From IMG/VR virus record IMGVR_UViG_3300029610_000240: a DNA stretch of 64,000 nt; one strand, 5' to 3'. The notes below the pieces were generated by a model. That model saw only the letters and a program-made list of their open reading frames with translations. It was not told the origin of the DNA and did not search any database. This DNA is from a virus. Its lineage: Duplodnaviria > Heunggongvirae > Uroviricota > Caudoviricetes. Position numbers and translations under genes: made by a program. Positions 12,187 to 59,011 of this stretch are shown here, piece by piece; position 1 is the first letter of the stretch; every line of letters begins with the position of its first letter.

Positions 12187-12332
12187 ATATCTTTAGAATT
12201 TTAGAATAATTTCATAAAATACGCATAAAATAAAAAATATGACACATATTGATAAAAAATATGATTTTTAGTATAATAAAGGAGTGTTATTTCGTGAATT
12301 ACGAATTTAAAATTTCAAGGGGGAAAGAGAAA

Positions 12333-13451: not shown

Positions 13452-13465
13452 AAGGGGATAAAACA

Positions 13466-13969: not shown

Positions 13970-13984
13970 AGGAGTTTATTGCTA

Positions 13985-17023: not shown

Positions 17024-17433
17024 GTGAGGAACAATATCATAGTGCTTCACATTGTAAATATTTGATACAGTATCATATCATTTGGTGTCCCAAGTTCAGA
17101 TTTTCAGTATTACAAGGAAATGTCGATATCATTCTTAAACAGATATTACAGAAAATTTGTAATGATTATAAATACAAGATCAAAGCACTCGAAGTGATGC
17201 CAGATCATATACATATTTTCATAGATGTTCCGCAGACAGTTGCTCCTTGTGATGTTGTAAGAACTCTCAAAAGTATCAGTGCTATCGAATTATTTAAAGT
17301 ATTTCCAAAATTAAAACAGTTCTATGCGAAATGCGGAGTATTATGGCCAAGAGGATACTTTGTATCTACTGTCGGACATATAAGCGAAGCTACAGTAATT
17401 AAGTATATTGAGGAGCAGAAAAATGATAAGTGA
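17020..17433 (+). CDS. tnpA: IS200/IS605 Y1 HuH transposase TnpA (intact)
   Basis: 'YLIQYHIIWCPKFR', HuH 'MPDHIHIFI', and catalytic Tyr in 'GYFVSTVGHISEATVIKYIEEQ'. Confidence 0.85.
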   Translation: MSEEQYHSASHCKYLIQYHIIWCPKFRFSVLQGNVDIILKQILQKICNDYKYKIKALEVMPDHIHIFIDVPQTVAPCDVVRTLKSISAIELFKVFPKLKQFYAKCGVLWPRGYFVSTVGHISEATVIKYIEEQKNDK

Positions 17434-19460: not shown

Positions 19461-19772
19461 ATGAAACAGTATATCGGAATAAAGGTTGTTGCTGCGAGAC
19501 CAATGACAAGAGGTGACTATAATATCTTTCGAGGATGGCAGATTCCGGCAGACGAAGATCCTGCCGATGAAGGATATGTGATGAAATACGAGAATGGACA
19601 TGTGCAATGGTTGCCAAAGGATATGTTTGAGTCTGACTATAAAGAATATGACGAGAGTACCCTGCCGGCAACAGCTATTGGTATGGTAAGTTCAGATTAC
19701 AAAGAATGTTTTCAGGCAGAGTACAAGCAGCTCAGAATTCGTTATGAAAAATTGAAGAGAATGCGTCAATAA
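19461..19772 (+). CDS. hypothetical protein (about 103 aa)
   Basis: RBS 'gaaaggagac' before ATG 19461. No motif recognised. Its 3' end abuts the IscB element left end. Confidence 0.45.
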   Translation: MKQYIGIKVVAARPMTRGDYNIFRGWQIPADEDPADEGYVMKYENGHVQWLPKDMFESDYKEYDESTLPATAIGMVSSDYKECFQAEYKQLRIRYEKLKRMRQ

Positions 19773-19799
19773 CCCCGACCTACAGTAATAACTGTTGAG

Positions 19800-20044
19800 G
19801 TCGGAGCTTGTAAAAGCTCATATTGACTAGCCTAAGTTCTTCGAGAACTACGTTGTTTATGTTATCACACCTGCGAATGATACCATAGTTTGCAGCCTTG
19901 TGTAGGCTCTGTAAAAGTTCTGTGAGGTAGGAACGGTCAACCTAGTATGTTCGATCACGACAAGCATTTACAACATTGGCGAAGGGTAACAAACTTTCAA
20001 AAGAAAGGGACAGCACTTGAGAGTAGCTGTCAAAGGTAAAAACT
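19800..20044 (+). ncRNA. Putative IscB omega-RNA scaffold (structured, about 240 nt, immediately 5' of iscB)
   Basis: No ORF. Multiple local stems, for example 'gagcttgtaaaagctc' and 'ctgtaaaagttctgtgagg...'. The position matches the known IscB omega-RNA location overlapping the left end. Confidence 0.55.
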
Positions 20045-21319
20045 ATGAGAGTATTTGTATTCAATATGCGTGGCAGACCATTAATGCCATGCTCACAAAG
20101 AAAAGCCAGATTACTCCTAAGGGAAAATAAGGCTATGATTTATAAATATCATCCATTTACGATTCAGCTGACTTATACAACTGGAGAAACAAAGCAGGAC
20201 TGTCATATAGGTATAGACACAGGTTCTAAATATATAGGAGCTGCTGTCAGATCAGAGGATAAGGTTTTTTGGAAAGGCGAAATCGAGCTTCGACAGGATA
20301 TCAGGTCAAATCTTGATACGAAACGTATTTATCGCAGAAGCAGACGAAATCGTAAAACAAGATACCGAAAACCAAGGTTTTTAAATCGTAAGAGAAGAGA
20401 TGAATGGCTTCCACCTAGCTTGCAAAGCAGGATAAATCATACGTTTCATTGGATTGACACATTGAGTAGTTTGGTTCCAAACCCCATTCTTCACATAGAA
20501 GTCGGTAAGTTTGATGTAGCAAAGATGATAAATCCTGAAATCCATGGAGTTGACTATCAACATGGTCAGACATATGGTTTCTTCGATGAAAGGTATTTTG
20601 TTTTTGCAAGAGATAACTACACTTGTCAGTGCTGTGGAAAGTCAAAAAATAAGATTTTGAACACACATCATATCATCTACCGCAGTAATGGCGGAACAAA
20701 CAGAGTTGATAATCTTATTACAGTTTGCACAGATTGTCATACATCGCAGAATCACAGGAAAGGTGGAATATTCTATCAATGGCAGGAGCAGCATAAAAAG
20801 GTAAAACAATACAAAGAACCGCCGTTCATGAATACCTTACGTAAGAGGATATTTGTAGCGTATCCAGATGCTGAGATCACATATGGATCTGAAACAACAC
20901 CAAAACGTAAGGCGATGAAATTGGATAAGACGCACTATAATGATGCGATTGTCATTAGTGGTATCAATGAAATTAAAGAAAATCCTGAAGAATGGTTACT
21001 GATAAAACAATTCCGCAAAAAGAAACGCTCTTTACACGAGGCTACCGCCCGTAAGGGAAGAAAAAAGCCAAACAGAAATCAGACGCGTAACAGTAAGAAT
21101 ACGCCTTATTATAAAGGATTTTATCTTAACGATAAGGTTTCAGTTTTTGGAAAGAGTGGATATATTACAGGATTTACGAGCAATGCGGCATATATAAAAG
21201 ATGAGAACAATGACTATATTACTCTGCCAAACAAAACCTATAAACAGGTCAGCATCAATAAAATGAAGTTGGAATGTCATAACAACAATTGGCAGTACAT
21301 AATAAAAAATGCTGTGTAA
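20045..21319 (+). CDS. iscB: IscB, an RNA-guided nuclease ancestral to Cas9 (PLMP domain, split RuvC, HNH)
   Basis: PLMP motif 'RGRPLMPCS'. RuvC-I 'IGIDTGSKYIGAAV'. HNH 'CQCCGKSKNKILNTHHIIYRSNGGTNRVDNLITVCTDCH'. Length 424 aa. Confidence 0.85.
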   Translation: MRVFVFNMRGRPLMPCSQRKARLLLRENKAMIYKYHPFTIQLTYTTGETKQDCHIGIDTGSKYIGAAVRSEDKVFWKGEIELRQDIRSNLDTKRIYRRSRRNRKTRYRKPRFLNRKRRDEWLPPSLQSRINHTFHWIDTLSSLVPNPILHIEVGKFDVAKMINPEIHGVDYQHGQTYGFFDERYFVFARDNYTCQCCGKSKNKILNTHHIIYRSNGGTNRVDNLITVCTDCHTSQNHRKGGIFYQWQEQHKKVKQYKEPPFMNTLRKRIFVAYPDAEITYGSETTPKRKAMKLDKTHYNDAIVISGINEIKENPEEWLLIKQFRKKKRSLHEATARKGRKKPNRNQTRNSKNTPYYKGFYLNDKVSVFGKSGYITGFTSNAAYIKDENNDYITLPNKTYKQVSINKMKLECHNNNWQYIIKNAV

Positions 21320-23449: not shown

Positions 23450-23600
23450 CCTCTCCCATCTATAGAGGTGGGAGCTTCCCTAACCTCGGCAGGTTTGGTT
23501 CTCGTTCGATAGCACCAATGTGCTAAGCTTAAGCGAGCTAACCCCGTGTGTCCCACGGTTGTATTATGTGAAATTGTGGTTATGCAGTTACTATCCGCAT
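23450..23600 (-). ncRNA. Putative TnpB omega-RNA (reRNA) region overlapping the tnpB 3' end and the right-end hairpin
   Basis: Structured, ORF-free segment immediately 3' of tnpB on the minus strand. Local palindromes 'gcttaagc' and 'ccgtgtgtcccacgg'. Placement follows the known TnpB reRNA organisation. Confidence 0.45.
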
Positions 23601-24698
23601 TCCCTCATTTCTGATATTGATCGCTGCATTTACATCTCTGTCGTGATGGATTCCACACTGCGGACAATCCCACTGCCTGAGTGCAAGATCCTTTGTTTTC
23701 GCATTCTTGTAACCACAGGCAGAACACATCTGACTGCTTGCAAAAAATCTGTCCACTTTCACAAGTTTTTTCCCTTGTTCCTCAAGTTTATACTTTAGAA
23801 AGGCTGTGAACATTCCCCATCCATTATCCGAAACGGATTTTCCCAATTTCAACGACCGAGACATTGCTTTCATATCCAGATCCTCTATACATACACAATC
23901 ATAGGCATTGGTTATCTGTCTTGACTGCTTATGCAGAAAATCTTTTCGCTGATTGGAAACTTTTTCGTGAAGTTTGGCTACCTTGATTCTCTGTTTCCTG
24001 CGATTGTTCGAACCTTTCTGCATCTTGGAAAGTCTGCGTTGTTCTCTTGCTAATCTTTTCTCTGCGTTCCGGTAATATCCTGGATATGCCGGTTCATTGC
24101 CATTACTGTCACGATATAATCCGTGCATGGAAAAGTCCAGACCTAAAAAACTGTGCATCTCCTTTTCTGGTATCTGATCTTCATACTCAAAAAGGATACT
24201 TGCATAGTATCTTCCGCCTGGTGTCTGGCTGATCGTCACTGATTTCAACCTGTATCCCTTTGGAACAGATCTGTGCTGCTTTAATCGGACTTGTCCGATC
24301 TTTGGCAGTTTCAGATACCCATCCGATATGGTGATGTTGCCATTGATACATATGGTTGAATAGCTGTTTTTATGATTCTTTTTTGATTTGAACCTTGGAA
24401 ATCCTGTTTTCGGCCGTTTGAAAAAGTTCTGAAATGCTGTATCAAGGTGTCGGAGTGATTGCTGTAAGGATATACTATCGACTTCCCGCAAAAATGCGTA
24501 TTCTTCCGTTTTCTTCATTTCAGCCATTTCTTTCGCACAGACAGTATATGTTATATTTGTCTTGTTCTTCTTATACTGCCTGATCCTTCGATTAAGCCAA
24601 TGGTTGTACACCATTCTGACACAGCCGAAAGTCCTGGCAAACAGAATCATCTGCTCATTATTGGGATATATTCTGAATTTATATGCTCTGTTTGCCAT
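23580..24698 (-). CDS. tnpB: TnpB RNA-guided endonuclease (IS605 OrfB), with intact RuvC and zinc finger
   Basis: 'AYKFRIYPNNEQMILFARTFGCVRMVYNHWL' is the canonical TnpB N-terminus. RuvC-I 'LGLDFSMHGL'. Zinc finger plus RuvC-III 'CSACGYKNAKTKDLALRQWDCPQCGIHHDRDVNAAINI'. Confidence 0.9.
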   Translation of the reverse strand: MANRAYKFRIYPNNEQMILFARTFGCVRMVYNHWLNRRIRQYKKNKTNITYTVCAKEMAEMKKTEEYAFLREVDSISLQQSLRHLDTAFQNFFKRPKTGFPRFKSKKNHKNSYSTICINGNITISDGYLKLPKIGQVRLKQHRSVPKGYRLKSVTISQTPGGRYYASILFEYEDQIPEKEMHSFLGLDFSMHGLYRDSNGNEPAYPGYYRNAEKRLAREQRRLSKMQKGSNNRRKQRIKVAKLHEKVSNQRKDFLHKQSRQITNAYDCVCIEDLDMKAMSRSLKLGKSVSDNGWGMFTAFLKYKLEEQGKKLVKVDRFFASSQMCSACGYKNAKTKDLALRQWDCPQCGIHHDRDVNAAINIRNEGMRIVTA

Positions 24699-25992: not shown

Positions 25993-26667
25993 ATGAAAGA
26001 GGTTTTGAAGAAAATGAAAATAAAATGTAGTAAAAAATTAAAGAAAACGCATTTGAGTGATGGTGCTTATAATTTGCTAATCGAAGCTATTGTACTATAC
26101 GGCTTATTAATCAATCTTATAACATGTGCATTTTTTGCGGATTATGTAGCTATGATTCCATTAAGAGCATTGGTGATTGGATACCTGCTCATTTCAATTA
26201 TTGGAATAGTAATGTTAACCAGATATAAGGCTGTCCTTGTAAAATTTGTTGGATATAACATGATTGTGATTCCATGTGGAATAACATTATCAACCATCAT
26301 CAGTGATTATGCTGGTAGATCTGATCTTGTATTGCAAGCATTGATCATTACAACTATGATCACTTTTTGTATGATTACTCTTAGTTGCATATTCCCAAAG
26401 TTTTTTGTAGGTATTGGGAAAATGCTTTTTGTAGCATTAGTAGGAGTTGTTATTGCATATGTCGTATGCTATTTTGTCGGATTAAATACAGGAATTATAG
26501 CATGGATTTCGGCAATTATTTTTTCCTTATATATTGGATACGATTTTGTTTCAGCACAGCAGGCTAAACATACAGTTGCAAACGCAATTATTTACGGGGC
26601 TGATATTTATTTGGATCTGGTCAATCTTTTTGTTGAGATTTTAAGAATTTTAAAAGATAACGATTAA
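25993..26667 (+). CDS. Multi-pass membrane protein, possibly of the Bax-inhibitor-1/YccA family
   Basis: About 7 predicted TM helices, about 220 aa, C-terminal 'IIYGADIYLDLVNLFVEILRIL'. Family assignment tentative. Confidence 0.45.
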   Translation: MKEVLKKMKIKCSKKLKKTHLSDGAYNLLIEAIVLYGLLINLITCAFFADYVAMIPLRALVIGYLLISIIGIVMLTRYKAVLVKFVGYNMIVIPCGITLSTIISDYAGRSDLVLQALIITTMITFCMITLSCIFPKFFVGIGKMLFVALVGVVIAYVVCYFVGLNTGIIAWISAIIFSLYIGYDFVSAQQAKHTVANAIIYGADIYLDLVNLFVEILRILKDND

Positions 26668-32467: not shown

Positions 32468-32904
32468 GGTACCACAATAAGAGGGAAATATGAAATAACA
32501 GGTGTTCTACTATGTAGAAAATATTATATTGTTTTAAATGAGAATGGGAAAGATCATACATTTGAGATTCCTAAAAGCCAATACAATTCAATAAAGCTGA
32601 ACAGTCGTGTATTGTGTAAGATAAATTATAAAGAAAATAAAATTACAAAAATTAAAATGATCGATAAATCAAGAATTTTATATAATCCTTTCGTTCAAAA
32701 ACTTAGATAACGTAACTATAAAGAGATTCATGATGATGACTTAATTGATGATTTAAGACAAAGTTTTAAAAATATGTAACAGATATATGTAAAAACAAAT
32801 GGCAGTTACATAATGCGTAAGAATAAGAATGTATCGAATAAGTCTATATAAGTAGAATCTACCAGGTGGTAGAAAATATTAAAACTAACAGGAGATAATA
32901 TTTC

Positions 32905-36133: not shown

Positions 36134-36279
36134 GTTTTGTAATCGTGTAAAAGCACTTAAATATGCTGTAGAAGATGTTTTGTTACTGTGCAACGGAAAT
36201 ATGTCTAAATGATTTAATTTATTACTACTTTTTATTCCTTTGTTTTGTAACCGTGTAACGGAGACATGTCTAAATGGTC
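36134..36279 (+). CRISPR. Mini CRISPR array U0: three 38-nt 'GTTTTGTAACCGTGTAACGGAGACATGTCTAAATGGTC'-type repeats (the first two degenerate) with one clear 27-nt spacer
   Basis: Repeats at 36134-36171, 36177-36214 and 36242-36279. Spacer 'taatttattactactttttattccttt' at 36215-36241. Confidence 0.6.
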
Positions 36280-36356
36280 AAATTATTTTGCACGGTGCGT
36301 AAAAATAAGAAATTATCGAATAGGCTCGTTAAAACGAGAGCTGCCGTGTGGCAGTA
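36280..36356 (+). ncRNA. tracrRNA-like module cognate to U0 (anti-repeat, 'AAAAATAAG' nexus, two hairpins)
   Basis: 'aaattattttgCACGGtgcgtaaaaataagaaattatcgaataggctcgttaaaacgagagctgccgtgtggcag'. CACGG pairs with the repeat's CCGTG. The nexus and hairpins are SpCas9-tracr-like. Confidence 0.6.
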
Positions 36357-36499
36357 AATCTAAGCTACATCAATTTCAAGATTATAATTTGGGAGGAGAA
36401 AATGTTTGGGAAAATTAATGTTTTTTATTTATTGTTGGCTATATATTTGTATTATTTGTTATATTCTTGCAGCCAAGAACAAGAAAGAAGGTGTAGTGT

Positions 36500-45959: not shown

Positions 45960-46126
45960 AATATTGTAATTTTGTAATAAATATATATTAATGTGGGGGC
46001 ATTACATAAATAATGAAATAAAAAGGCGTATTATATTGAAAAAAGTATCAAAAAGTGTTAGCATATTACATATAGACAAGAGAATTCAGAAAAACAAAAT
46101 GTGTATTTTATAAGGAGGATACTTAC

Positions 46127-49100
46127 GTGCAGAATGGATTTTTAGGAATAACTGTTAGTAGTGAACAGGTTGGTTGGGCAGTTACAAATCCCAAATATGA
46201 GTTAGAACGTGCATCTCGAAAAGATTTATGGGGTGTAAGGCTTTTTGATAAAGCAGAAACAGCGGAAGATCGAAGAATGTTCCGTACAAACAGACGATTA
46301 AATCAGAGAAAAAAGAACAGAATACATTATCTTAGAGATATTTTCCATGAGGAAGTAAATCAAAAAGATCCTAACTTTTTTCAGCAATTAGATGAAAGCA
46401 ATTTCTGTGAAGATGATCGTACTGTAGAGTTTAATTTTGATACTAATCTTTATAAGAATCAGTTTCCAACAGTGTATCATTTAAGAAAATATCTAATGGA
46501 AACAAAAGATAAACCAGATATTCGTCTGGTATACTTAGCTTTTTCAAAATTTATGAAAAATCGAGGACATTTCTTATACAAAGGAAATCTTGGAGAGGTT
46601 ATGGACTTTGAAAATTCCATGAAAGGCTTTTGTGAAAGTTTAGAGAAATTTAATATTGACTTCCCTACATTATCAGATGAACAGGTAAAAGAAGTCCGAG
46701 ATATCTTATGTGATCATAAAATTGCTAAAACTGTGAAAAAGAAAAACATCATTACTATTACAAAAGTAAAAAGTAAGACAGCAAAAGCATGGATTGGACT
46801 GTTTTGTGGTTGCAGCGTTCCTGTTAAAGTATTATTTCAGGATATCGATGAAGAAATTGTAACGGATCCAGAAAAAATCTCATTTGAAGATGCTTCTTAT
46901 GATGATTGTATTGCAAATATTGAAAAGGGTGTCGGTATTTATTATGAAGCTATTGTTTCTGCAAAGATGCTTTTTGACTGGTCTATCCTGAATGAAATTT
47001 TAGGTGACCATCAGTTATTAAGTGATGCAATGATCGCAGAATACAATAAGCATCATGATGATTTAAAGCGTTTACAGAAGATCATTAAAGGAACTGGCAG
47101 TAGAGAATTATATCAGGATATCTTTATTAATGATGTTTCTGGAAATTATGTATGCTACGTTGGTCATGCAAAAACAATGAGTAGTGCAGATCAGAAACAG
47201 TTTTATACATTTTTAAAAAATCGATTAAAAAATGTGAATGGTATTTCATCAGAAGATGCAGAATGGATTGATACAGAGATTAAAAACGGTACTTTACTAC
47301 CAAAACAGACAAAACGTGATAACAGTGTTATTCCGCATCAATTACAGTTAAGGGAATTTGAATTAATTCTTGATAACATGCAGGAAATGTATCCATTCTT
47401 AAAAGAAAACAGAGAAAAATTATTAAAAATCTTCAATTTCGTTATTCCTTATTATGTAGGTCCGCTAAAGGGCGTTGTAAGAAAAGGAGAGAGTACAAAC
47501 TGGATGGTGCCTAAAAAAGATGGTGTGATTCATCCATGGAATTTCGATGAAATGGTAGACAAAGAAGCGTCTGCGGAATGTTTTATTTCCCGAATGACAG
47601 GAAATTGTAGTTATTTATTTAATGAAAAAGTTCTTCCAAAGAATTCTCTTCTTTATGAGACATTTGAGGTATTAAATGAGCTAAATCCATTAAAGATCAA
47701 TGGAGAACCTATCAGCGTGGAATTAAAACAGAGAATTTATGAACAGCTTTTCTTGACAGGGAAAAAAGTTACAAAAAAATCTCTGACAAAATATCTTATC
47801 AAGAATGGCTATGACAAAGATATTGAATTATCAGGTATTGATAATGAATTTCACAGCAATCTAAAATCTCATATTGATTTTGAGGATTACGATAATCTAT
47901 CTGATGAAGAAGTTGAACAGATTATTCTTAGAATTACAGTATTTGAAGATAAGCAGCTGTTAAAAGATTATTTAAATCGCGAGTTTGTAAAGCTCTCTGA
48001 GGATGAGAGAAAACAGATTTGCTCATTATCTTATAAAGGATGGGGAAACTTATCAGAAATGCTATTAAACGGTATTACTGTAACAGATTCCAATGGTGTA
48101 GAAGTTTCTGTAATGGATATGCTGTGGAATACAAACTTAAATCTGATGCAGATCTTAAGTAAGAAATATGGATATAAAGCAGAAATCGAACATTACAATA
48201 AAGAACATGAAAAAACCATTTATAATCGTGAAGATTTGATGGATTATTTAAATATTCCACCGGCTCAGCGTAGGAAGGTAAATCAGCTGATTACGATAGT
48301 AAAATCTCTCAAAAAGACATATGGAGTTCCAAATAAGATTTTCTTCAAAATAAGCAGAGAACATCAGGATGATCCAAAGAGAACTTCATCCAGAAAAGAA
48401 CAGCTAAAATATTTATACAAATCCTTAAAATCAGAAGATGAAAAACATCTTATGAAAGAGCTTGATGAATTGAACGATCATGAATTATCCAATGATAAAG
48501 TTTATCTTTATTTTCTACAGAAAGGACGCTGCATTTATTCTGGCAAGAAATTAAATCTTTCAAGATTAAGAAAATCTAATTATCAGAATGATATTGACTA
48601 CATTTATCCATTATCTGCAGTAAATGATCGTTCTATGAATAATAAGGTATTAACGGGAATCCAGGAGAATCGAGCAGACAAGTATACCTATTTTCCAGTT
48701 GATTCAGAAATTCAGAAAAAAATGAAGGGATTTTGGATGGAACTGGTTCTGCAGGGATTTATGACAAAGGAGAAATACTTCCGATTATCCAGAGAAAATG
48801 ATTTTTCAAAGAGCGAACTTGTTAGCTTTATTGAACGTGAAATTTCAGATAATCAGCAAAGTGGAAGAATGATTGCTTCTGTATTACAGTATTATTTCCC
48901 TGAATCAAAGATTGTATTTGTAAAAGAAAAGCTGATTTCTTCCTTTAAGAGGGATTTCCATTTAATTAGTAGTTATGGTCACAATCATTTACAAGCTGCA
49001 AAAGATGCTTATATTACGATTGTAGTTGGAAATGTATATCATACAAAATTTACAATGGACCCAGCAATCTATTTTAAGAATCATAAGAGAAAAGATTATG

Positions 49101-50065
49101 ATCTGAACCGATTATTCTTAGAAAATATCAGCAGAGATGGACAGATTGCATGGGAAAGTGGTCCATATGGGTCAATTCAGACGGTTCGAAAAGAATATGC
49201 TCAAAACCATATTGCTGTTACAAAAAGAGTCGTGGAAGTAAAAGGCGGCTTATTTAAGCAGATGCCATTAAAAAAAGGACATGGCGAATATCCATTAAAA
49301 ACCAATGATCCTAGATTTGGCAATATCGCACAGTATGGAGGGTATACGAATGTCACAGGTTCCTATTTTGTATTAGTAGAATCAATGGAGAAAGGGAAAA
49401 AACGTATTTCTTTAGAATATGTTCCAGTATATCTTCATGAGCGTTTAGAGGATGATCCTGGACATAAACTGTTAAAAGAATATCTGGTTGATCACAGAAA
49501 ACTTAATCATCCAAAGATTTTACTTGCAAAAGTAAGAAAAAACTCATTACTTAAGATTGACGGTTTTTATTATCGTTTAAATGGTCGAAGTGGAAATGCT
49601 CTTATCCTTACAAATGCAGTGGAATTGATCATGGATGACTGGCAGACAAAAACAGCAAACAAGATTTCTGGATACATGAAACGCAGAGCTATTGATAAGA
49701 AAGCAAGGGTTTATCAAAATGAATTCCATATTCAGGAATTAGAACAGCTTTATGATTTTTATTTAGATAAATTAGAGAATGGTGTTTATAAAAATCGTAA
49801 GAATAATCAGGCTGAATTAATTCACAACGAAAAAGAACAGTTTATGGAACTCAAGACAGAAGATCAGTGTGTATTATTGACTGAGATTAAAAAGCTTTTT
49901 GTATGTTCTCCAATGCAGGCAGACCTTACATTGATTGGTGGCAGCAAACACACAGGAATGATTGCTATGTCAAGCAATGTTACAAAAGCAGATTTTGCAG
50001 TCATTGCGGAAGATCCTTTAGGACTTAGAAACAAAGTAATTTATTCTCATAAAGGTGAGAAGTAA
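46127..50065 (+). CDS. cas9: Type II Cas9 homolog (1312 aa) with substituted catalytic residues in RuvC-I (Asp to Thr), RuvC-II (Glu to Lys) and HNH (His to Tyr); predicted nuclease-dead
   Basis: N-terminal 'FLGITVSSEQVGWAV' (compare 'IGLDIGTNSVGWAV'), 'TVYHLRKYL', 'DIRLVYLAFSKFMKNRGHFL'. RuvC-II 'KIFFKISREHQ' (compare 'NIVIEMARENQ'). HNH 'NDIDYIYPLSAVNDRSMNNKVL' (compare '[21 protein letters not shown]'). RuvC-III region 'SYGHNHLQAAKDAYI'. RBS 'aaggagg' before GTG 46127. Confidence 0.9.
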   Translation: MQNGFLGITVSSEQVGWAVTNPKYELERASRKDLWGVRLFDKAETAEDRRMFRTNRRLNQRKKNRIHYLRDIFHEEVNQKDPNFFQQLDESNFCEDDRTVEFNFDTNLYKNQFPTVYHLRKYLMETKDKPDIRLVYLAFSKFMKNRGHFLYKGNLGEVMDFENSMKGFCESLEKFNIDFPTLSDEQVKEVRDILCDHKIAKTVKKKNIITITKVKSKTAKAWIGLFCGCSVPVKVLFQDIDEEIVTDPEKISFEDASYDDCIANIEKGVGIYYEAIVSAKMLFDWSILNEILGDHQLLSDAMIAEYNKHHDDLKRLQKIIKGTGSRELYQDIFINDVSGNYVCYVGHAKTMSSADQKQFYTFLKNRLKNVNGISSEDAEWIDTEIKNGTLLPKQTKRDNSVIPHQLQLREFELILDNMQEMYPFLKENREKLLKIFNFVIPYYVGPLKGVVRKGESTNWMVPKKDGVIHPWNFDEMVDKEASAECFISRMTGNCSYLFNEKVLPKNSLLYETFEVLNELNPLKINGEPISVELKQRIYEQLFLTGKKVTKKSLTKYLIKNGYDKDIELSGIDNEFHSNLKSHIDFEDYDNLSDEEVEQIILRITVFEDKQLLKDYLNREFVKLSEDERKQICSLSYKGWGNLSEMLLNGITVTDSNGVEVSVMDMLWNTNLNLMQILSKKYGYKAEIEHYNKEHEKTIYNREDLMDYLNIPPAQRRKVNQLITIVKSLKKTYGVPNKIFFKISREHQDDPKRTSSRKEQLKYLYKSLKSEDEKHLMKELDELNDHELSNDKVYLYFLQKGRCIYSGKKLNLSRLRKSNYQNDIDYIYPLSAVNDRSMNNKVLTGIQENRADKYTYFPVDSEIQKKMKGFWMELVLQGFMTKEKYFRLSRENDFSKSELVSFIEREISDNQQSGRMIASVLQYYFPESKIVFVKEKLISSFKRDFHLISSYGHNHLQAAKDAYITIVVGNVYHTKFTMDPAIYFKNHKRKDYDLNRLFLENISRDGQIAWESGPYGSIQTVRKEYAQNHIAVTKRVVEVKGGLFKQMPLKKGHGEYPLKTNDPRFGNIAQYGGYTNVTGSYFVLVESMEKGKKRISLEYVPVYLHERLEDDPGHKLLKEYLVDHRKLNHPKILLAKVRKNSLLKIDGFYYRLNGRSGNALILTNAVELIMDDWQTKTANKISGYMKRRAIDKKARVYQNEFHIQELEQLYDFYLDKLENGVYKNRKNNQAELIHNEKEQFMELKTEDQCVLLTEIKKLFVCSPMQADLTLIGGSKHTGMIAMSSNVTKADFAVIAEDPLGLRNKVIYSHKGEK

Positions 50066-50106: not shown

Positions 50107-50259
50107 GCTTTGGAACTGCGTAGAACATGATATGTCTTATGGCTAAAAGAATTACAGGTGCATATTTTGAACTGTGTAAAACATGGCATATGGGAGAATT
50201 GGCAACGACTGGAACAGAACACAGTTTTGAAACTGTATAAAACATGACATGTCTTATGG
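50107..50259 (+). CRISPR. Mini CRISPR array U1: 3 repeats (consensus GTTTTGAAACTGTATAAAACATGACATGTCTTATGG) and 2 spacers (22 and 29 nt), immediately 3' of cas9
   Basis: Repeats at 50107-50142, 50165-50194 (degenerate) and 50224-50259. Spacers 'ctaaaagaattacaggtgcata' and 'agaattggcaacgactggaacagaacaca'. Confidence 0.7.
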
Positions 50260-50385
50260 TTCAAATTATTTATACAGTACGTGAAAATAAGAAATTATCG
50301 AATAAACTCGTTTAGACGAGAACTGCTAGAGGCAGTAATTGCAGAAAATGTCATGAACCCCAAGCGACTTCGTCGGCCGGGGGTT
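50260..50385 (+). ncRNA. tracrRNA-like module cognate to U1, plus a terminator
   Basis: 'ttcaaattatTTATACAGTacgtgaaaataagaaattatcgaataaactcgtttagacgagaactgctagaggcag'. TATACAGT is an exact complement of the repeat's ACTGTATA. Terminator 'ccccaagcgacttcgtcggccgggggttt'. Confidence 0.7.
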
Positions 50386-50958: not shown

Positions 50959-51117
50959 GTTATTTTGAGAAATGATTGCAAATGTGATCGTAGCGTACCT
51001 TACTTCACAGCTTAGTTTTGGAACTATGTAAAATCAAATGATTGCAAATGGGCAGAGAGAAAATTTGAAAAATTGTCTGTGTTTTGGAACTATGTAAAAT
51101 CAAATGATTGCAAATGG
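50959..51117 (+). CRISPR. Mini CRISPR array U2: degenerate repeat plus 2 perfect 37-nt repeats 'GTTTTGGAACTATGTAAAATCAAATGATTGCAAATGG', with 2 spacers (28 and 29 nt)
   Basis: Repeats at 50959-50986 (3' half only), 51015-51051 and 51081-51117. Spacers 'atcgtagcgtaccttacttcacagctta' and 'gcagagagaaaatttgaaaaattgtctgt'. Confidence 0.75.
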
Positions 51118-51191
51118 TCAAAGTAATTGCATGGCGTGTAAAAATAAGAATTTATCGAAATAATTTGCTCCGGCGAAATCTGCAAGATGCA
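51118..51191 (+). ncRNA. tracrRNA-like module cognate to U2
   Basis: 'tcaaagtaattgCATGGcgtgtaaaaataagaatttatcgaaataatttgctccggcgaaatCTGCAagaTGCAG'. Confidence 0.65.
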
Positions 51192-51285
51192 GAAATCAAG
51201 CTGATCGATGCTTTACATATTTATCTATTTCAATATTTCTTCAACCATATACATTGATCAGCTTTAATAAAAAGAATTAAAATTA

Positions 51286-51446
51286 CGAAAATAAAATTGA
51301 ATGATTCCAATGGATAGTCGAAAAAGAATTGGATAGTCGACGGGTTTTAGAATAGTGTAAAATTGAATGATTCTAAGGGTTAGATACTCCACTAGATAGC
51401 AAAGTACTTGTTTTAGAATAGTGTAAAATTAAATGATTCTAAGGGG
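51286..51446 (+). CRISPR. Mini CRISPR array U3: degenerate repeat plus 2 repeats 'GTTTTAGAATAGTGTAAAATTGAATGATTCTAAGGG(G)', with 2 spacers (30-31 nt)
   Basis: Repeats at 51286-51313 (3' half), 51344-51379 and 51410-51446. Spacers 'atagtcgaaaaagaattggatagtcgacgg' and 'ttagatactccactagatagcaaagtactt'. Confidence 0.75.
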
Positions 51447-51527
51447 TCAAATAGATTCTATACAATGCGTGAAAATAAGAAACTTATCGAACAAACCTGT
51501 GTAGGAAACAGGAACTGCCGAGGGCAG
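51447..51527 (+). ncRNA. tracrRNA-like module cognate to U3
   Basis: 'tcaaatagATTCTAtacaatgcgtgaaaataagaaacttatcgaacaaaCCTGTgtaggaaACAGGaaCTGCCgagGGCAG'. ATTCTA pairs with the repeat's TAGAAT. Confidence 0.65.
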
Positions 51528-51575
51528 TAAAAATAAAAAGCATATTTTTATTATGTTTTATTTTATGATGAAGAG

Positions 51576-51823: not shown

Positions 51824-53755
51824 ATGGAAATAGATTACAGAAAAGAATTAAATAAGAGTCAATATGAAGCTGTTACAACGACAGAAGGACCAGTCCTAAT
51901 CCTTGCCGGTGCCGGAACTGGCAAAACTCGTTGTATGGTATATCGTGTGGCATATCTGATTGAAAAAGGCGTGTCACCCAATAATATCTTATTATTGACC
52001 TTTACAAATAAAGCAGCAAATGAAATGAAGCAAAGGGCAGCAGATATGCTTGATGAACGATGTAGTCAAATTACTGCATGTACATATCATTCATTCTGTG
52101 CAAAGATGCTTCGCAAATATTCACAACTGATTGGAATTCAATCAGATTATACAATTATTGATCCGGGAGATTGTGCAGATATCATATCGATCATCGAAAC
52201 AGAACACGGTATGGATAAAGTAAAAGATTTTCCAAGATCATCTCAACTGGTATCAGCACATAGCAAAGCCTTAAATACGAATCAGTCATTAGAGGATACT
52301 TTGTTTGATATGCTCGGTAAATGGAAGTATATGGAAATCGAAAGATTCATTCCAGATATAAAGAAAATCTTAGCGGATTATCAATCATACAAAAAACAAA
52401 ACAACATGATGGATTATGATGATTTGCTAATCAATTTTATATCTGTATTGAAAAGAAACCCTTCTATAAAGAATAAATTAGCTGATATTTATCAGTATAT
52501 TATGATCGACGAATATCAGGATTCTAATTATTTACAGGAAAAGATTATTTTTATGTTACGTGAAAAGAATCGTAACTTAGCAGTGGTAGGTGATGATTAC
52601 CAATGCATCTATGGATTTAGAGGAAGTATGGTAGAAAATATCATTAATTTTCCACAAAAGATGTCCGGATGTAAAGTTGTTTACTTAACACAGAATTATC
52701 GCAGCAATCAAGAGATCATGGATTTATCCAATATTGTTATGAAAAAACATTCACTGGAAGGTTTTTTTAAAAAGCTTGTCGCAACTCATGTGGCCAATAT
52801 TCAGCCATTGCTAGTTCGATCAGAGGACGAGGGCGAAGAAGCTTCTTATATTTTAAATAAGATTATGGCATTACATGATGAAGAAGAGATTCCGTATCAT
52901 GAAATTTGTGTTCTTGAAAGAAGTTCTTATCATTCTGTAAGACTAGAAGCACTTTTAAATAAAATGAAAATCCCATATGACAAATATGGTGGAATGAAGT
53001 TTTTTGATTATGATCATATCAAAAACTTCTTATGCTTTTTGCGATGTCAGATAAATCCACATGATGAAATTGCGTGGTTTCGACTATTAAAGTTATTTGA
53101 TGGTATTGGAAATGTTTATGCCAGAAATATCGCAGCAACATGTAAAACTCTTGGATTAGAGGGACTTGTTCAACACAAATACATAAAAAGAAAATTTCAG
53201 CCGGATCTTGAAAATTTAAAGAGTTTTATTGAAAAGCTTAATGATCAAGATTTTCAGATCGAATTGCAAAGCATTAAATCATTTTATTCACGTTTAATGG
53301 ACATTACATTAATGCTGATGAAAACATCGGAGAAGAAACGTAGGGAGCTTGCTAGAGCAAATAAACAAGCGGTCCGCGATTTTGATACACTGATTGAAAT
53401 GGCAGATGGATATGATTCTCCAGTGACATTTCTGGAAGAAATAATGCTTGAAGCCAGTCCTCAGAAAGAGGAAGAGGAAGATCGAATGGTTATATCTACA
53501 ATTCATTCCGCAAAAGGCTTAGAGTTTCACTCTGTTTTTGTTATGAACTGCGTAGATACAATGTTTCCATCTACAGATAAAGATCAGATTGGAACAGTAG
53601 AAGATAACGAAGAGTTGAGATGCTTCTATGTGGCAATAACACGGGCAAAAGAACGATTATTTTTAATGGCACCGAAATATATAGCCAAATTTGGATGTGT
53701 TGAAGAGGGAATTATCTCCCATTTTATTAGTGATGTTTTTCAAGTAAAGGAGTAA
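51824..53755 (+). CDS. UvrD/PcrA/Rep-family superfamily-1 DNA helicase
   Basis: Walker A 'ILAGAGTGKT'. Motif IV 'QNYRSNQEI'. Motif VI 'VISTIHSAKGLEFHSVFVM'. 'VGDDYQCIYGFRG' is motif III-like. Confidence 0.85.
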   Translation: MEIDYRKELNKSQYEAVTTTEGPVLILAGAGTGKTRCMVYRVAYLIEKGVSPNNILLLTFTNKAANEMKQRAADMLDERCSQITACTYHSFCAKMLRKYSQLIGIQSDYTIIDPGDCADIISIIETEHGMDKVKDFPRSSQLVSAHSKALNTNQSLEDTLFDMLGKWKYMEIERFIPDIKKILADYQSYKKQNNMMDYDDLLINFISVLKRNPSIKNKLADIYQYIMIDEYQDSNYLQEKIIFMLREKNRNLAVVGDDYQCIYGFRGSMVENIINFPQKMSGCKVVYLTQNYRSNQEIMDLSNIVMKKHSLEGFFKKLVATHVANIQPLLVRSEDEGEEASYILNKIMALHDEEEIPYHEICVLERSSYHSVRLEALLNKMKIPYDKYGGMKFFDYDHIKNFLCFLRCQINPHDEIAWFRLLKLFDGIGNVYARNIAATCKTLGLEGLVQHKYIKRKFQPDLENLKSFIEKLNDQDFQIELQSIKSFYSRLMDITLMLMKTSEKKRRELARANKQAVRDFDTLIEMADGYDSPVTFLEEIMLEASPQKEEEEDRMVISTIHSAKGLEFHSVFVMNCVDTMFPSTDKDQIGTVEDNEELRCFYVAITRAKERLFLMAPKYIAKFGCVEEGIISHFISDVFQVKE

Positions 53756-53789: not shown

Positions 53790-53965
53790 TGGATTTGAAT
53801 CCATGTAAAAATGTAAAGCAAATGATTCCAAATGGCAATCTTCTCGAATTGTCGTGTAGGCAAAGTTTTGAAACCATGTAAAAAAATGATTCCAAATGGG
53901 TATGCATTGGTGTTTGAAGCGTTTGTGTGTTTTGGAACCATGTAAAAGCAAATGATTCCAAATGG
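53790..53965 (+). CRISPR. Mini CRISPR array U4: 3 repeats (consensus GTTTTGGAACCATGTAAAAGCAAATGATTCCAAATGG; first degenerate) and 2 spacers of 29 nt
   Basis: Repeats at about 53790-53835, 53865-53899 and 53929-53965. Spacers 'caatcttctcgaattgtcgtgtaggcaaa' and 'gtatgcattggtgtttgaagcgtttgtgt'. Confidence 0.75.
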
Positions 53966-54043
53966 TTAAAAGCAGATTACATGGTGTGTCAAAATAAGAA
54001 CTTATCGAATAGATCTATATAAATGGAATCTGCCAGGTGGCAG
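53966..54043 (+). ncRNA. tracrRNA-like module cognate to U4
   Basis: 'ttaaaagcagattaCATGGtgtgtcaaaataagaacttatcgaatagatctatataaatggaatCTGCCaggtGGCAG'. CATGG pairs with the repeat's CCATG. Confidence 0.65.
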
Positions 54044-54051
54044 AAAAAAAC

Positions 54052-55411: not shown

Positions 55412-55537
55412 ATATCATCAAAGAGGTTTTGGTTAACTAAAGGTTGATTATCGGTATATCATTGTTCGGTGTCTGTAGACAGCATTTTTTCAAATCTATA
55501 GTTGTTATAAAATAAGAGACACTTTCATGTATAGTGG

Positions 55538-55594
55538 AGTTTAGTTTCAGAAGTTTATAAAAACAGATAACTATTAATGATTATCTGTTTCATG
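55538..55594 (+). repeat. Single extended CRISPR-like repeat of module U5 (related to the U6 repeat, carrying an internal palindrome AACAGATAA/TTATCTGTT)
   Basis: 'gtttagtttcagaagtttataaaaacagataactattaatgattatctgtttcatgg' against the U6 repeat 'gctttagaagtctataaaacagaatcattgtcaatgg'. Confidence 0.45.
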
Positions 55595-55658
55595 GATTGT
55601 GTAAAAATAAGCAAATTAGCGAATATGCTCGTTGAAACGAGAGCTGTTAGATAACAGC
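55595..55658 (+). ncRNA. tracrRNA-like module U5; the second hairpin is a variant (GCTGTTAGATAACAGC)
   Basis: 'attgtgtaaaaataagcaaattagcgaatatGCTCGttgaaaCGAGaGCTGTtagatAACAGC'. Confidence 0.5.
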
Positions 55659-55710
55659 TAAAAATGTAACTATATAAATTAATTTGTAAATTATAGGGAG
55701 GACTATTTTA

Positions 55711-55875: not shown

Positions 55876-56091
55876 ATGATGGATATTTACACAAGATTAT
55901 TGATGATGGATATTATGATATCGGCAGTAGCTATTATGGTAAATATCTTAGAAAATTGTCCGATTAACGGTAAAATACACAATATTTCAAGAATTTTAAT
56001 CATATCTAGTATTGCTGCAGACATTATCTTACTTTTAGGAATTGTCAATACGTTCATCTCATACAGTATCCTGTATTCTTATTTTAAATAA
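55876..56091 (+). CDS. Small membrane protein (71 aa, 2 TM)
   Basis: Hydrophobic ORF. Confidence 0.35.
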   Translation: MMDIYTRLLMMDIMISAVAIMVNILENCPINGKIHNISRILIISSIAADIILLLGIVNTFISYSILYSYFK

Positions 56092-56250
56092 GATACAGAA
56101 GAATCATTGTCGATGTTAAACATATTATGTGAAACATTATTGTCAGGCTTTAGAAGTCTATAAAACAGAATCATTGTCAATGAGATCAAATTCTTTATGA
56201 CAACGCAATACAGCTTTAGAAGTCTATAAAACAGAATCATTGTCAATGGT
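56091..56250 (+). CRISPR. Mini CRISPR array U6: degenerate repeat plus 2 repeats 'GCTTTAGAAGTCTATAAAACAGAATCATTGTCAATGG', with 2 spacers of 30 nt
   Basis: Repeats at 56091-56116 (3' half), 56147-56183 and 56214-56250. Spacers 'ttaaacatattatgtgaaacattattgtca' and 'agatcaaattctttatgacaacgcaataca'. Confidence 0.75.
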
Positions 56251-56325
56251 CAAATAAGCAGACTGCGTAAAAATAAGAATTTTATCGATATTGCTCGTGT
56301 AGTCGAGAACTGCCAAGTGGCAGCA
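56251..56325 (+). ncRNA. tracrRNA-like module cognate to U6
   Basis: 'tcaaataagcAGACTgcgtaaaaataagaattttatcgatattGCTCGtgtagtCGAGaaCTGCCaagtGGCAG'. AGACT pairs with the repeat's AGTCT. Confidence 0.65.
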
Positions 56326-56352
56326 ACATTTATAATAAAAAGGAGGAATTAT

Positions 56353-57769: not shown

Positions 57770-59011
57770 TTATTTTATTTTCATGATCTCGGCCATTAGC
57801 CACTCTGGTTTTCGTTTTGTGTAAGTAGCTTCTGTGATATCGTTGATCTTGTGACCCATCATATATTTTAATGCATATTCATCTACTTTATCTCTTTTTG
57901 CCATCGTGGAAAACTGAATCCTTGGATCATGAGCTCTGTGATCTGGATTGAGCTCTAATTTCTTAACAATCTTTTCGAATCGATGTCTATATTTATCATA
58001 CGTCATTTTTAAGCTACTTCGGTGTGTTTTTGTATCAGTGCAGTTGATTAAATAATCACTTCCAAGATTTATTGCTTCCTGGTATCGATGCTTGACTAGA
58101 TCACGAATCCGTGGATGGATTGGAACCAAGCGATCTTTACCTGCGTCAGTCTTCATACCGCCGATAAAAAACCAATTTTCCAGATCTACATTTTTTAATT
58201 CAATTAGACCCAATTCTTGTGGTCGCCATCCAGAGTAGCATTGGATCAGAATCACATCCACATAATCAGTATCATACAAATGATCCCATAATTTTTTTAT
58301 TTCTTCATCCGTAAAATCAATATGGTCCTTCTTCGCTTCTTTAACATCTTTAATAACATCATCAGACAAATTAAAGGTCCTTGCATAATTCTTGTCTACT
58401 AATTCATACTCTAGCGCATAATCCAACATTAAGTTGAATAGAGATTTTATCTTTGTCTTTGTAGTAGGAGATGCGTGTTTTTCTTTACCATCGACTACAT
58501 ACGTTCCATCTTCCATACAACCTTTAATATGTCGGGCACGTAAATCTTTTGCACGCATATCATAAACAGCAGAGCAGTAGTTCCAGGCAGATTTAATTGT
58601 ACGTTCACTTGAAGGACTTGACAGGGATTCAAAATATTTATCAGTCCACTTTTCGTATAATTGCTCGACTGTCAGATCAGAGTCAAGATCATACGGATTT
58701 TTATGATATTCAAGTAATGCAGCGTAAGCATCATTATAGGTTTTGAAATATGTTTCTGGTTTCAATGATTTATAAATAGGTTTTCCATAAAAATTTTTTC
58801 CAACACAGACTAATGCACGAAAAGGCTTTCTAAGATTTTGATTTTTTAATTCGGATATAGTGCCAAATCCATTTGGAAGACGTTTTCGTTTATTAGTTTT
58901 TCTTTGTTGTTGTTTAATAACTTTTGTATCTAGAGGATAACCGCAGTGAGGACAAGTTATTGCCTTATCACTTACCTGCAATTGACATTCTGGACATTTG
59001 ATCAGTGCCAT
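57770..59011 (-). CDS. int: Tyrosine recombinase/integrase with an N-terminal zinc-ribbon
   Basis: C-terminal catalytic region 'RAHDPRIQFSTMAKRDKVDEYALKYMMGHKINDITEATYTKR' (R...HxxR...Y). N-terminal 'CPECQLQVSDKAITCPHCG'. Confidence 0.85.
   Translation of the reverse strand: MALIKCPECQLQVSDKAITCPHCGYPLDTKVIKQQQRKTNKRKRLPNGFGTISELKNQNLRKPFRALVCVGKNFYGKPIYKSLKPETYFKTYNDAYAALLEYHKNPYDLDSDLTVEQLYEKWTDKYFESLSSPSSERTIKSAWNYCSAVYDMRAKDLRARHIKGCMEDGTYVVDGKEKHASPTTKTKIKSLFNLMLDYALEYELVDKNYARTFNLSDDVIKDVKEAKKDHIDFTDEEIKKLWDHLYDTDYVDVILIQCYSGWRPQELGLIELKNVDLENWFFIGGMKTDAGKDRLVPIHPRIRDLVKHRYQEAINLGSDYLINCTDTKTHRSSLKMTYDKYRHRFEKIVKKLELNPDHRAHDPRIQFSTMAKRDKVDEYALKYMMGHKINDITEATYTKRKPEWLMAEIMKIK

Follow-up and report, generated by a model that had tools for sequence, protein, structure and literature searches.

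Can a Cas9 that has lost the residues needed for DNA cleavage be maintained as a working protein, and what would it then do? This question is raised by an open reading frame (ORF; 46127..50065, plus strand) in a 64,000-nt stretch of DNA, IMGVR_UViG_3300029610_000240, assigned to Caudoviricetes (hereafter the window). A preliminary description had proposed that the ORF encodes a full-length Cas9 with all three catalytic centres substituted, selected for binding only. We addressed the proposal by computational sequence analysis, with spacer targets obtained from database searches. Homologous proteins are designated P0001-P0296 and the related loci or contigs that were compared with the window L001-L032; window spacers are named by w, cassette letter and order (wB1, wD2 etc.), and L5D1 is a spacer of cassette D in L005. 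The results support a natural Cas9, predicted to be nuclease-dead (dCas9), that is retained by strong selection. The locus is considerably richer than first stated, and appears to be a derived nuclease-dead type II system with guide cassettes fused in cis.

The protein has the collinear domain architecture of Cas9 throughout its length (Table 1). Pfam matches were obtained for Cas9_REC (1.5e-138), Cas9_PI (2e-57), the bridge helix (1e-10) and HNH_4 (4e-10), and the match to Cas9_RuvC was under the cut-off (20.6 versus 27 bits). With phmmer, residues 5-1300 were collinear with the solved 1372-aa Cas9 9jwk_A (7e-216), and residues 6-1004 aligned to Streptococcus pyogenes Cas9 (SpCas9). The product is thus a full-length Cas9, as had been proposed, and its sequence places it as a Cas9 of II-A ancestry.

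The catalytic positions were assigned from pairwise phmmer alignments and from a MAFFT alignment of 157 sequences. Both approaches place T9, K741 and Y825 at the positions of SpCas9 D10, E762 and H840: in RuvC-I, 'FLGITVSS' pairs with 'YIGLDMGT' of 9jwk_A and 'IGLDIGT' of SpCas9; in RuvC-II, 'KIFFKISRE' pairs with 'KIFMEMARG' and 'IVIEMARE'; and in HNH, 'DIDYIYPLS' pairs with 'DVDHIVPQS'. The three substitutions named in the preliminary description, and the codon positions given for them, are therefore correct, and neither alignment has Asp, Glu or His at these sites. Two other details had to be amended. The spacing around the RuvC-III box had been thought to be disrupted, but 'SYGHNHLQAAKDAY' aligns with 'SRDLNNYHHAVDAY' of 9jwk_A with zero gaps and no indel, so that the residues are changed and the spacing is intact. 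Furthermore, Cas9 has two nuclease active sites and not three catalytic centres; five of the eight catalytic positions compared across both sites are replaced (D10, E762, H840, H982 and H983) and D839, N863 and D986 are kept. In the RuvC tetrad (D10-E762-H983-D986), T9, K741 and A957 are substitutions and D986 alone is retained, as D960. In the HNH triad (D839-H840-N863), D824 and N848 correspond to the retained D839 and N863, and H840 has become Y825. The protein therefore has the architecture of the Cas9 family without an intact RuvC tetrad or HNH triad, and from these active-site substitutions it is predicted to be incapable of RNA-guided double-strand DNA cleavage.

The substitutions are a trait of a whole family. 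In 45 of 45 members inspected (71-100% identity) the positions of D10, E762 and H982-H983 read Thr, Lys and Gln followed by Ala, Ser or Tyr, and the H840 position is Tyr with the single exception of P0020, which has His. The canonical D/E/H/HH set was found in all 99 of the nearest canonical Cas9 relatives, and 132 of 149 cluster representatives at 50% identity carried the full canonical catalytic set. P0001, identical to the window protein, stands for a cluster of 2780 sequences in the homolog search. P0002 is full length and 89% identical; P0019, P0020 and P0021 are full length and 71-74% identical; and P0003-P0018 (1151-1159 aa) are 96-99% identical over the aligned regions and have no HNH match. 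After the family members, the next homologs are ordinary Cas9s at 39-43% identity. Among 1.84 billion 50%-identity cluster representatives the family forms one cluster, with no intermediates down to 42% identity.

Selection was estimated from codon alignments of five orthologs by the Nei-Gojobori method. The ratio of nonsynonymous to synonymous substitution rates (dN/dS) was 0.06-0.11 over the whole gene in all ortholog pairs, with dS up to ~2. The least saturated pair, the window gene and P0002, gave a dN of 0.058 and a dS of 0.667 (ratio 0.087). By region, dN/dS was 0.05-0.10 in REC, 0.05-0.13 in PI and 0.04-0.08 in HNH. The ORF is intact in lineages as distant as 71% identity.

The HNH domain alone has been removed by at least eight different, independent in-frame deletions, with the junctions KIFFK|KSELV, HQD|VEREI, KIFFKI|VSFIE, KIFFK|VSFIE, SREH|HSDNQ, KIFFK|IEREI, KIFF|IEREI and KIFFKIS|IEREI; all HNH deletions observed are in frame. 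In L005, whose allele is otherwise near-identical to that of the window, the junction has at most 1 nt of microhomology, and the seven further junctions lie within a few codons of the 48352/48819 boundaries. The HNH-deleted alleles come from natural metagenome contigs of 50-111 kb with the same gene neighbourhood. That the HNH domain may be lost, but neither the frame nor the remainder of the gene, is what would be expected of a protein that binds and does not cut. Lineage-fixed substitutions, purifying selection that includes REC and PI, in-frame loss of HNH and, as described below, the presence of its own guides agree with the proposal that the protein was selected for a function, which may be binding only, and did not decay.

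Eight guide cassettes (A to H, Table 1) were found over 24 kb. All are on the strand of the dCas9 gene, each is directly 3′ of a plus-strand gene, and each consists of a CRISPR mini-array of 1-3 repeats followed by its own trans-activating CRISPR RNA (tracrRNA) in cis. The repeats are 36 nt long and begin with GTTTT or GCTTT, and the spacers are 29-31 nt. In six of the eight there are 2-3 repeats, separated by spacers of 29-31 nt (shorter in cassette A), and relatives carry 4-5 repeats, five being the maximum. Degenerate repeats were found in cassettes A and G and as first repeats of B, C, D and F. The 29-nt guide region of cassette E is kept in all close relatives. The same cassette architecture is present beside the 71-74%-identical orthologs in loci L007 and L009.

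Each mini-array is followed, ~20 nt 3′ of its last repeat, by a match to RAGATH-30 (Rfam RF03055; 59-nt model, gathering score 59.5 bits). The eight matches are full length (model 1-59 of 59), score 64.7-78.6 bits, are all on the plus strand, and start at 32817, 36299, 50281, 51138, 51469, 53988, 55601 and 56267; 14 further matches were found in L001 and L002. The RAGATH-30 consensus consists of a 26-nt 'GUAAAAAUAAGAAuUUAUCGAA...' segment and two hairpins; in a tracrRNA, its counterparts are the lower-stem strand, the nexus and the terminal hairpins. The tracrRNA 5′ of the canonical cas9 gene of L030 has a similar nexus. The Rfam tracrRNA model RF02348 gave only 22.8 bits, against a gathering score of 70. 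RAGATH-30 is reportedly an orphan motif from Weinberg et al. 2017. No mention of it was found in the searchable literature, subscription-only works being outside the search.

The 5′ segment of each cassette's last repeat is predicted to form base pairs in cis with the nucleotides immediately preceding RAGATH-30, giving a lower stem, a bulge, an upper stem and a 25-30-nt loop, followed by two hairpins. Comparative evidence for this fold came from aligning 19 distinct cassettes, drawn from five elements: 90.7% of the cells were paired, versus 39-45% when the partners were slid by 1-3 columns. Compensatory two-sided changes were observed in 15 of 27 pairs, including 6 of 11 in the repeat:anti-repeat upper stem, and none of 500 column shuffles reached the observed pairing and covariation. 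G-U pairs in the alignment favour the plus strand. We conclude that each tracrRNA co-evolved with the repeat of its own array.

The arrangement of the DNA and the predicted folds match the order guide, repeat strand, loop, anti-repeat and tail of a single-guide RNA, which suggests that these parts may be joined on a single transcript. Promoters and terminators were also scanned for, but the DNA is AT-rich and the result carried no information (61 promoter-like sites versus 57.8 expected). Since U-runs do not follow the tracr tails and each cassette lies just 3′ of a plus-strand gene, the guides may be processed from read-through transcripts.

Two further features of the cassettes were observed. 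A near-invariant unpaired motif, (G)TCAAA(T/G), lies between the last repeat and the anti-repeat (e.g., 51117-51123, 51446-51452 and 56249-56255; columns 37-43 of the cassette alignment), at the end where new spacers appear; we take it to resemble the reverse complement of ATTTGAG, the leader-anchoring sequence of S. pyogenes. Tracr tails with no recognisable 5′ repeat or anti-repeat are present in L003 (8659-8712) and L009 (8040-8092), and may be degenerate cassettes.

Do the spacers change? Among elements with 97-100%-identical Cas9s, the spacers of cassettes A-D differ and cassettes E and F are conserved, their guide regions being shared by the window, L001, L002, L005, L024 and L027. Most of the pairwise comparisons differ on the tracr-proximal side: L002 compared with L001 (cassette A), L023 compared with the window (D), the window compared with L005 (B) and L001 compared with L002 (B). 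Pfam gave no match to cas1, cas2 or csn2 for neighbouring ORFs of the window, nor within 10 kb in any of five related contexts. The window has ten ORFs of 260-350 aa; the Pfam scan covered nine of them, and the tenth (15367-16359) was compared with PHROGs only. In the canonical 42%-identical relative L030, cas9, cas1, cas2 and csn2 are all present. Because no such genes accompany the cassettes, the spacers are probably inserted in trans by the Cas1-Cas2-Csn2 of the host.

Protospacers of three spacers were found on other mobile elements of gut Lachnospiraceae, in DNA that is not part of an array. In addition to its exact target, wB1 matched at 29/30 in three more IMG/VR contigs, an uncultured Eubacterium metagenome-assembled genome and Clostridium sp. 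OF09-36. Its target is a PemK/MazF toxin gene, which is followed by genes for a DUF2800 nuclease, an Enc34-type single-stranded DNA-binding protein and a family-A DNA polymerase, i.e., a phage-like replication module. The target of wD2 is the first gene of an operon that leads into Viral_Rep and FtsK/SpoIIIE genes, on a small element with a Tn916-type integrase. L5D1, from the HNH-deleted allele, matched 31/31 in L025 and 28/31 in L028 (3′ flank TAAAC); it is directed at a site 600 bp from that of wD2, in the following gene on the same element, so that spacers from different alleles have one element as target. The flanks AGAAG, TAAAA and TAAAC agree on NRAA, although three sites are too few for a firm protospacer-adjacent motif (PAM). 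All three protospacers are on the sense strand, and replication or transfer genes follow them within the operon (L015 5653-5682; L028 8400-8428 and 7803-7833).

No spacer matched GenBank phages or PLSDB plasmids. Exact scans of IMG/VR gave no match for wD1, wD2 and L23B2, and those for wF2 and L2A2 returned only their own arrays. Against the window and 11 related loci, the window spacers gave only short, chance-level matches. A wC2 match (24/30, non-NRAA flank) was judged to be chance, and a self-match of spacer G2 (26019-26042; 24 nt, two mismatches, no PAM-proximal seed) was dismissed. Across the whole 64-kb window, no NRAA-flanked match of 10-14 nt that could serve as an autoregulatory seed was found for any terminal guide, and a short tracr-L-type guide against the cas9 promoter was sought there and not found.

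From these observations, we think that the protein is very probably a catalytically dead and yet functional RNA-guided binder, and on balance we favour the fuller statement that its role is to silence other mobile elements. With the tracrRNA directly after the mini-array, the last repeat would fold back onto the anti-repeat to give a natural single-guide RNA, its structure being predicted and its expression and processing presumed; the 5′ repeats would pair with the tracrRNA in trans, and the guides would be released from read-through transcripts. New spacers would enter chiefly at the tracr-proximal end, where the variation is observed. The guides would then steer the protein to NRAA-flanked sites in rival elements, 5′ of their replication and transfer genes, where stable binding without cutting could silence or block the operons, to the benefit of the carrier element and its host. 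This would be a natural CRISPR interference (CRISPRi), employed in conflict between elements or in host defence as type IV-A and type V-M are. A still more comprehensive proposal can be made only tentatively, and we do not hold it to be the likelier outcome: a self-contained derived type II CRISPRi with dispersed array-tracrRNA fusions, of which RAGATH-30 is the tracrRNA; acquisition in trans at the tracr-proximal end, so that the newest spacer is directly a single guide; rival elements silenced uncut; and HNH loss driven by a pressure such as HNH-binding anti-CRISPRs.

Several observations weigh against a silencing binder. With SpdCas9, targeting of the sense strand is the weak orientation for blocking elongation, and with all three protospacers on that strand (n = 3) RNA polymerase would meet the complex from the PAM-distal side. 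Most spacers had no match in the collections searched, and no U-run terminators were found after the tracr tails. The P0020 lineage, with His at the H840 position, could nick DNA. Purifying selection on HNH is as strong as on the rest of the protein, which simple dispensability would not account for; the repeated HNH deletions and the strong constraint on HNH in full-length lineages pull in opposite directions. Finally, the nature of the carrier, integrative and conjugative element (ICE) or prophage, is unsettled, a 200-kb IMG/VR contig with the gene being listed as viral.

The strand bias would be less of a difficulty if the dead Cas9 were a targeting module, whose R-loop recruits a helicase or nuclease effector, either a host factor or the UvrD-type protein whose gene lies between cassettes C and D: a simple roadblock would not be expected to show this bias among the three protospacers. 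Cascade with Cas3 and type IV-A with DinG offer parallels, and the only nuclease-impaired Cas9 described earlier is linked to an SNF2 helicase (PMC10910872). In the window, L003 and L005, a UvrD/PcrA-like gene does lie among the cassettes. It is missing beside the 71-74%-identical orthologs in L007 and L009, where the cassettes are kept, and the neighbourhood shows no conserved nuclease gene. Helicases that serve the replication of the element itself are common on ICEs, and we regard recruitment as unlikely. The conserved guides of E, F and H could be aimed at fixed promoters of the host or of the element itself, in the manner of tracr-L, the small CRISPR-Cas-associated RNA (scaRNA) or TldR, the variable spacers being incidental; E and F are indeed conserved in the six elements named above, and E and H have the single-guide form with no 5′ repeat. 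Yet no terminal guide has an NRAA-flanked seed of at least 10 nt within the 64-kb window, no guide match was found in the 11 related loci compared (the search covered 64 kb of the element and little of the host genome), and the remaining cassettes turn over and match foreign elements, so that such a regulator seems distinctly improbable.

Turnover and foreign targets also bear on the idea that the dead Cas9, with many tracrRNA variants, is an anti-CRISPR decoy which absorbs host CRISPR RNAs (crRNAs) or competes with host Cas9. A mobile element is a target for host CRISPR, this one carries eight divergent anti-repeats, and a precedent exists in the type II-C Cas9 of a phage, whose RuvC is dead (PMC10910872, PMC12669027). 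That precedent has no arrays, whereas here the arrays hold spacers against third-party elements with a PAM-like flank, and the covariation of the anti-repeats with their own array repeats indicates that the tracrRNAs are adapted to the repeats of the element itself; we consider a decoy very unlikely. A residual or unconventional nuclease, which cuts or nicks through an HNH with Tyr for His or through the remaining RuvC Asp, might be suspected from the retention of D839, N863 and D986, from the constraint on HNH and from the His of P0020. Three of the four metal-binding or catalytic residues of RuvC are lost, however, and HNH is wholly deleted in at least eight alleles that are otherwise intact. 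In SpCas9, single substitutions of D10 or H840 abolish the respective activities, and the chance that this protein cuts appears slight indeed. Least credible of all is the reading that the mobile element captured a type II-A locus which is now a decaying relic. The absence of cas1, cas2 and csn2 and the degenerate repeats could be read in this way, but relics do not fit a gene with dN/dS of 0.06-0.11 at dS up to ~2, an ORF intact down to 71% identity, HNH deletions that are all in frame, a covarying RNA structure, and spacers that turn over and have exact targets; decay is contradicted by these data and was rejected.

What carries this putative silencing system? RefSeq WP_044924278.1 from Anaerostipes hadrus is near-identical to the window protein, belongs to the same 90%-identity cluster, is found on at least 1000 contigs and is annotated 'type II CRISPR RNA-guided endonuclease Cas9'. 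The gene order across lineages is Peptidase_C1/lectin, ATLF, dCas9, (UvrD), glucosaminidase, DUF6906, a 217-aa gene, Tn916-type Xis and Int. In L003, L005 and L009 the Xis and Integrase_DNA/Phage_integrase genes are 6-7 kb 3′ of the dCas9 gene. IMG/VR contains two contigs with the gene (98-100% identical), of which one is 200 kb and labelled viral. No copy was found by protein search of the GTDB species representatives, the locus did not match GenBank phages, and no conjugation genes were seen in the part of the element examined. Based on the Tn916-type Xis/Int of the relatives, the viral label and the absence from the GTDB species representatives, we regard the carrier as a large integrative mobile element of A. 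hadrus, probably an ICE. In the window, a zinc-ribbon tyrosine integrase gene (57770-59011, minus strand) is found where relatives have the plus-strand Tn916-type Xis-Int, and the IMG/VR contig L001 ends at ~57283 of the window, which suggests that the right end of the element varies between copies. Ordinary metabolic genes begin after ~59.2 kb. The UvrD helicase gene, present in the window, L003 and L005, is absent in L007 and L009.

The left part of the window carries as cargo an LPXTG adhesin gene, a restriction-modification-like pair, TnpB-like genes and an IscB gene with a HEARO RNA. The defence-type cargo (12249-16359) comprises an AAA_21 (AbiEii-like) ATPase ORF followed by the pair, a DNA methyltransferase and a restriction-endonuclease-like gene. 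The HEARO/omega RNA (RF02033, 112 bits) lies directly 5′ of a 424-aa ORF with RRXRR and HNH domains (20045-21319), so that 19765-21319 is an IscB OMEGA unit within the same mobile element. Two TnpB/IS605-OrfB-like ORFs (17408-19036, plus strand; 23580-24698, minus strand) match phrog_506, the second with 1e-126; the first has no Pfam match.

Table 1. Positions in the window of the dCas9 gene, its active-site codons, the guide cassettes and associated features.
Feature	Position	Strand	Remarks
dCas9 gene	46127..50065	+	GTG start, 1312 aa; type II-A-like: RuvC-I, bridge helix, REC, RuvC-II, HNH, RuvC-III, PI
Shine-Dalgarno AAGGAGG	46112..46118	+	8 nt 5′ of the GTG start; sequence reading
Thr9, RuvC-I Asp position (SpCas9 D10)	46151..46153	+	Codon ACT; by alignments; T in 45/45 family members
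Lys741, RuvC-II Glu position (SpCas9 E762)	48347..48349	+	Codon AAA; by alignments
Tyr825, HNH general-base His position (SpCas9 H840)	48599..48601	+	Codon TAC; Y across the family except P0020 (His)
Gln956-Ala957, RuvC-III His-His position (SpCas9 H982/H983)	48992..48997	+	Gap-free alignment
Asp960 (= D986), retained	49004-49006	+	By alignment
HNH segment deleted in the near-identical allele of L005	48352..48819	+	468 nt, clean, in frame
Cassette A	50107..50338	+	Three partly degenerate repeats, two short spacers, cis anti-repeat, RAGATH-30 tail 50281-50338
Cassette B	50970..51195	+	Partial repeat, wB1, repeat, wB2, repeat, anti-repeat, tracr tail 51138-51195
Cassette C	51288..51530	+	Partial repeat, two 30-nt spacers, two repeats, anti-repeat, tracr tail 51469-51530
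Cassette D	53800..54046	+	Degenerate repeat, wD1, repeat, wD2, repeat, anti-repeat, tracr tail 53988-54046
Cassette E	55515..55660	+	Lone repeat-loop-anti-repeat hairpin, tracr tail 55601-55660; single-guide form
Cassette F	56080..56326	+	Three repeats, two spacers kept among close relatives, anti-repeat, tracr tail 56267-56326
Cassette G	36135..36357	+	9.8 kb 5′ of the gene; three repeats (first degenerate), anti-repeat, tracr tail 36299-36357
Cassette H	32732..32875	+	13.3 kb 5′ of the gene; one repeat, anti-repeat, tracr tail 32817-32875; single-guide form
Spacer wB1	50985..51014	+	30/30 protospacer in one IMG/VR contig; 3′ flank AGAAG
Spacer wD2	53900..53928	+	29/29 protospacer in two human-gut metagenome contigs; 3′ flank TAAAA
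UvrD/PcrA-type helicase gene	51824..53755	+	Between cassettes C and D; possible, non-obligatory partner

Other Cas9s with lost catalytic residues were encountered among the 149 cluster representatives nearest to the window protein. By alignment, 13 are II-A-like Cas9s with substituted RuvC catalytic positions that keep the HNH D/E-H-N (P0165, P0199, P0207, P0225, P0229, P0236, P0246, P0249, P0258, P0267, P0273, P0277 and P0296); RuvC-dead Cas9s may thus far outnumber the single phage II-C case in the literature. A second, unrelated Cas9 that appears fully dead, P0250 (L032 507-4535), has N/T/A/S/A/D/Y/T at the eight catalytic positions and no HNH Pfam match. Its neighbours are Wzy_C, glycosyltransferase and Bac_transf genes, with no cas1 or cas2 alongside, and a tracr-like 'CATAAGTAAAACAAAGG...' stretch lies 5′ of it.

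Engineered dCas9 underlies CRISPRi and CRISPR activation, base editing and imaging. A natural, fully nuclease-dead Cas9 with its own guides, or such a Cas9 of A. hadrus, is not described in the searchable literature (subscription-only works lay outside the search). If confirmed, it would mean that type II, like types I, IV and V, has been turned by mobile elements into a device that targets without cutting. It would also assign a function to RAGATH-30, so far an orphan in Rfam, provide naturally optimised single-guide architectures and a naturally minimised, HNH-less Cas9 scaffold of ~1150 aa for tools, and make warfare between mobile elements tractable in a butyrate producer that is abundant in the human gut. 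It raises the question of how spacers are acquired with no cas1 or cas2, and with polarity toward the tracrRNA.

How does the system compare with those already known? With canonical type II-A (L030, SpCas9, 9jwk_A) it shares the collinear domain order at 39-43% identity, 36-nt repeats starting with GTTTT, spacers of ~30 nt, a 3′ PAM-like flank, and a tracrRNA with lower stem, bulge, upper stem and an 'AAUAAG..UUAUCGAA' nexus, as in the tracrRNA 5′ of the L030 cas9 gene. Arrays and a tracrRNA with its anti-repeat are thus present as in a type II-A system, but the catalytic residues and cas1, cas2 and csn2 are not: here both nuclease sites are predicted to be inactivated, the adaptation module is lacking and the locus is borne by a mobile element. 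Instead of one long array and one terminator-bearing tracrRNA, there are eight mini-arrays with cis-fused, covarying tracrRNAs and no U-run, and spacer gain appears to be tracr-proximal.

In the surveys of 2023-2025, the sole nuclease-impaired Cas9 is a phage II-C protein (PMC10910872, PMC12669027, PMC11656645). This 'II-C2' Cas9 has a dead RuvC and an active HNH, no array and an SNF2 helicase nearby (Altae-Tran et al. 2023, PMC10910872; Makarova et al. 2025, PMC12669027), and was proposed to be an anti-CRISPR that hijacks host crRNAs (PMC10910872, PMC12669027). Both are nuclease-impaired Cas9s on mobile elements with a helicase and a tracrRNA nearby. In contrast to II-C2, the protein described here is II-A-like (its best relatives have csn2), has lost both sites, in some alleles lacks HNH, and is accompanied by its own arrays with third-party spacers; its helicase is of the UvrD type and not SNF2.

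Closer in the proposed mode of action are type IV-A and the type V-M Cas12m, which bind and silence without cutting and use short arrays against mobile elements (PMC11656645, PMC11013384). Type IV-A (on plasmids and ICEs, with DinG) and V-M usually have no adaptation module, type IV shares the carriage by mobile elements, and for type IV-A3 the uptake of spacers in trans is documented. Their effectors are unrelated, being Cascade-like or Cas12, and they have no tracrRNA and no cis-fused cassettes.

For the guides, the nearest relatives are tracr-L of S. pyogenes and viral single-guide RNAs, in which a crRNA-like segment and the tracrRNA are on one transcript (Feussner et al. 2026 preprint, 10.64898/2026.06.01.729453). 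Their looped, single-guide-like hairpin is exactly the form of cassettes E and H. The tracr-L-type guides are short (13-14 nt), fixed and directed at the promoter from which an active host Cas9 is expressed, and the viral ones come with no cas9 gene, whereas here they are mostly full 30-nt exchangeable spacers for a co-encoded, putatively dead Cas9. The Rfam entry RF03055 is classed as an sRNA with no CRISPR type, and its model spans the lower-stem strand, nexus and two hairpins but not the repeat or anti-repeat. The reuse of RNA-guided scaffolds for binding, often on mobile elements, is also known from TldR (derived from TnpB), the Cas12k and Cascade of CRISPR-associated transposons, and Francisella Cas9 with scaRNA (PMC10705468). 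TldR and the transposon effectors are other proteins, with guides that are fixed for regulation or transposition and do not turn over, and Francisella Cas9 is catalytically intact.

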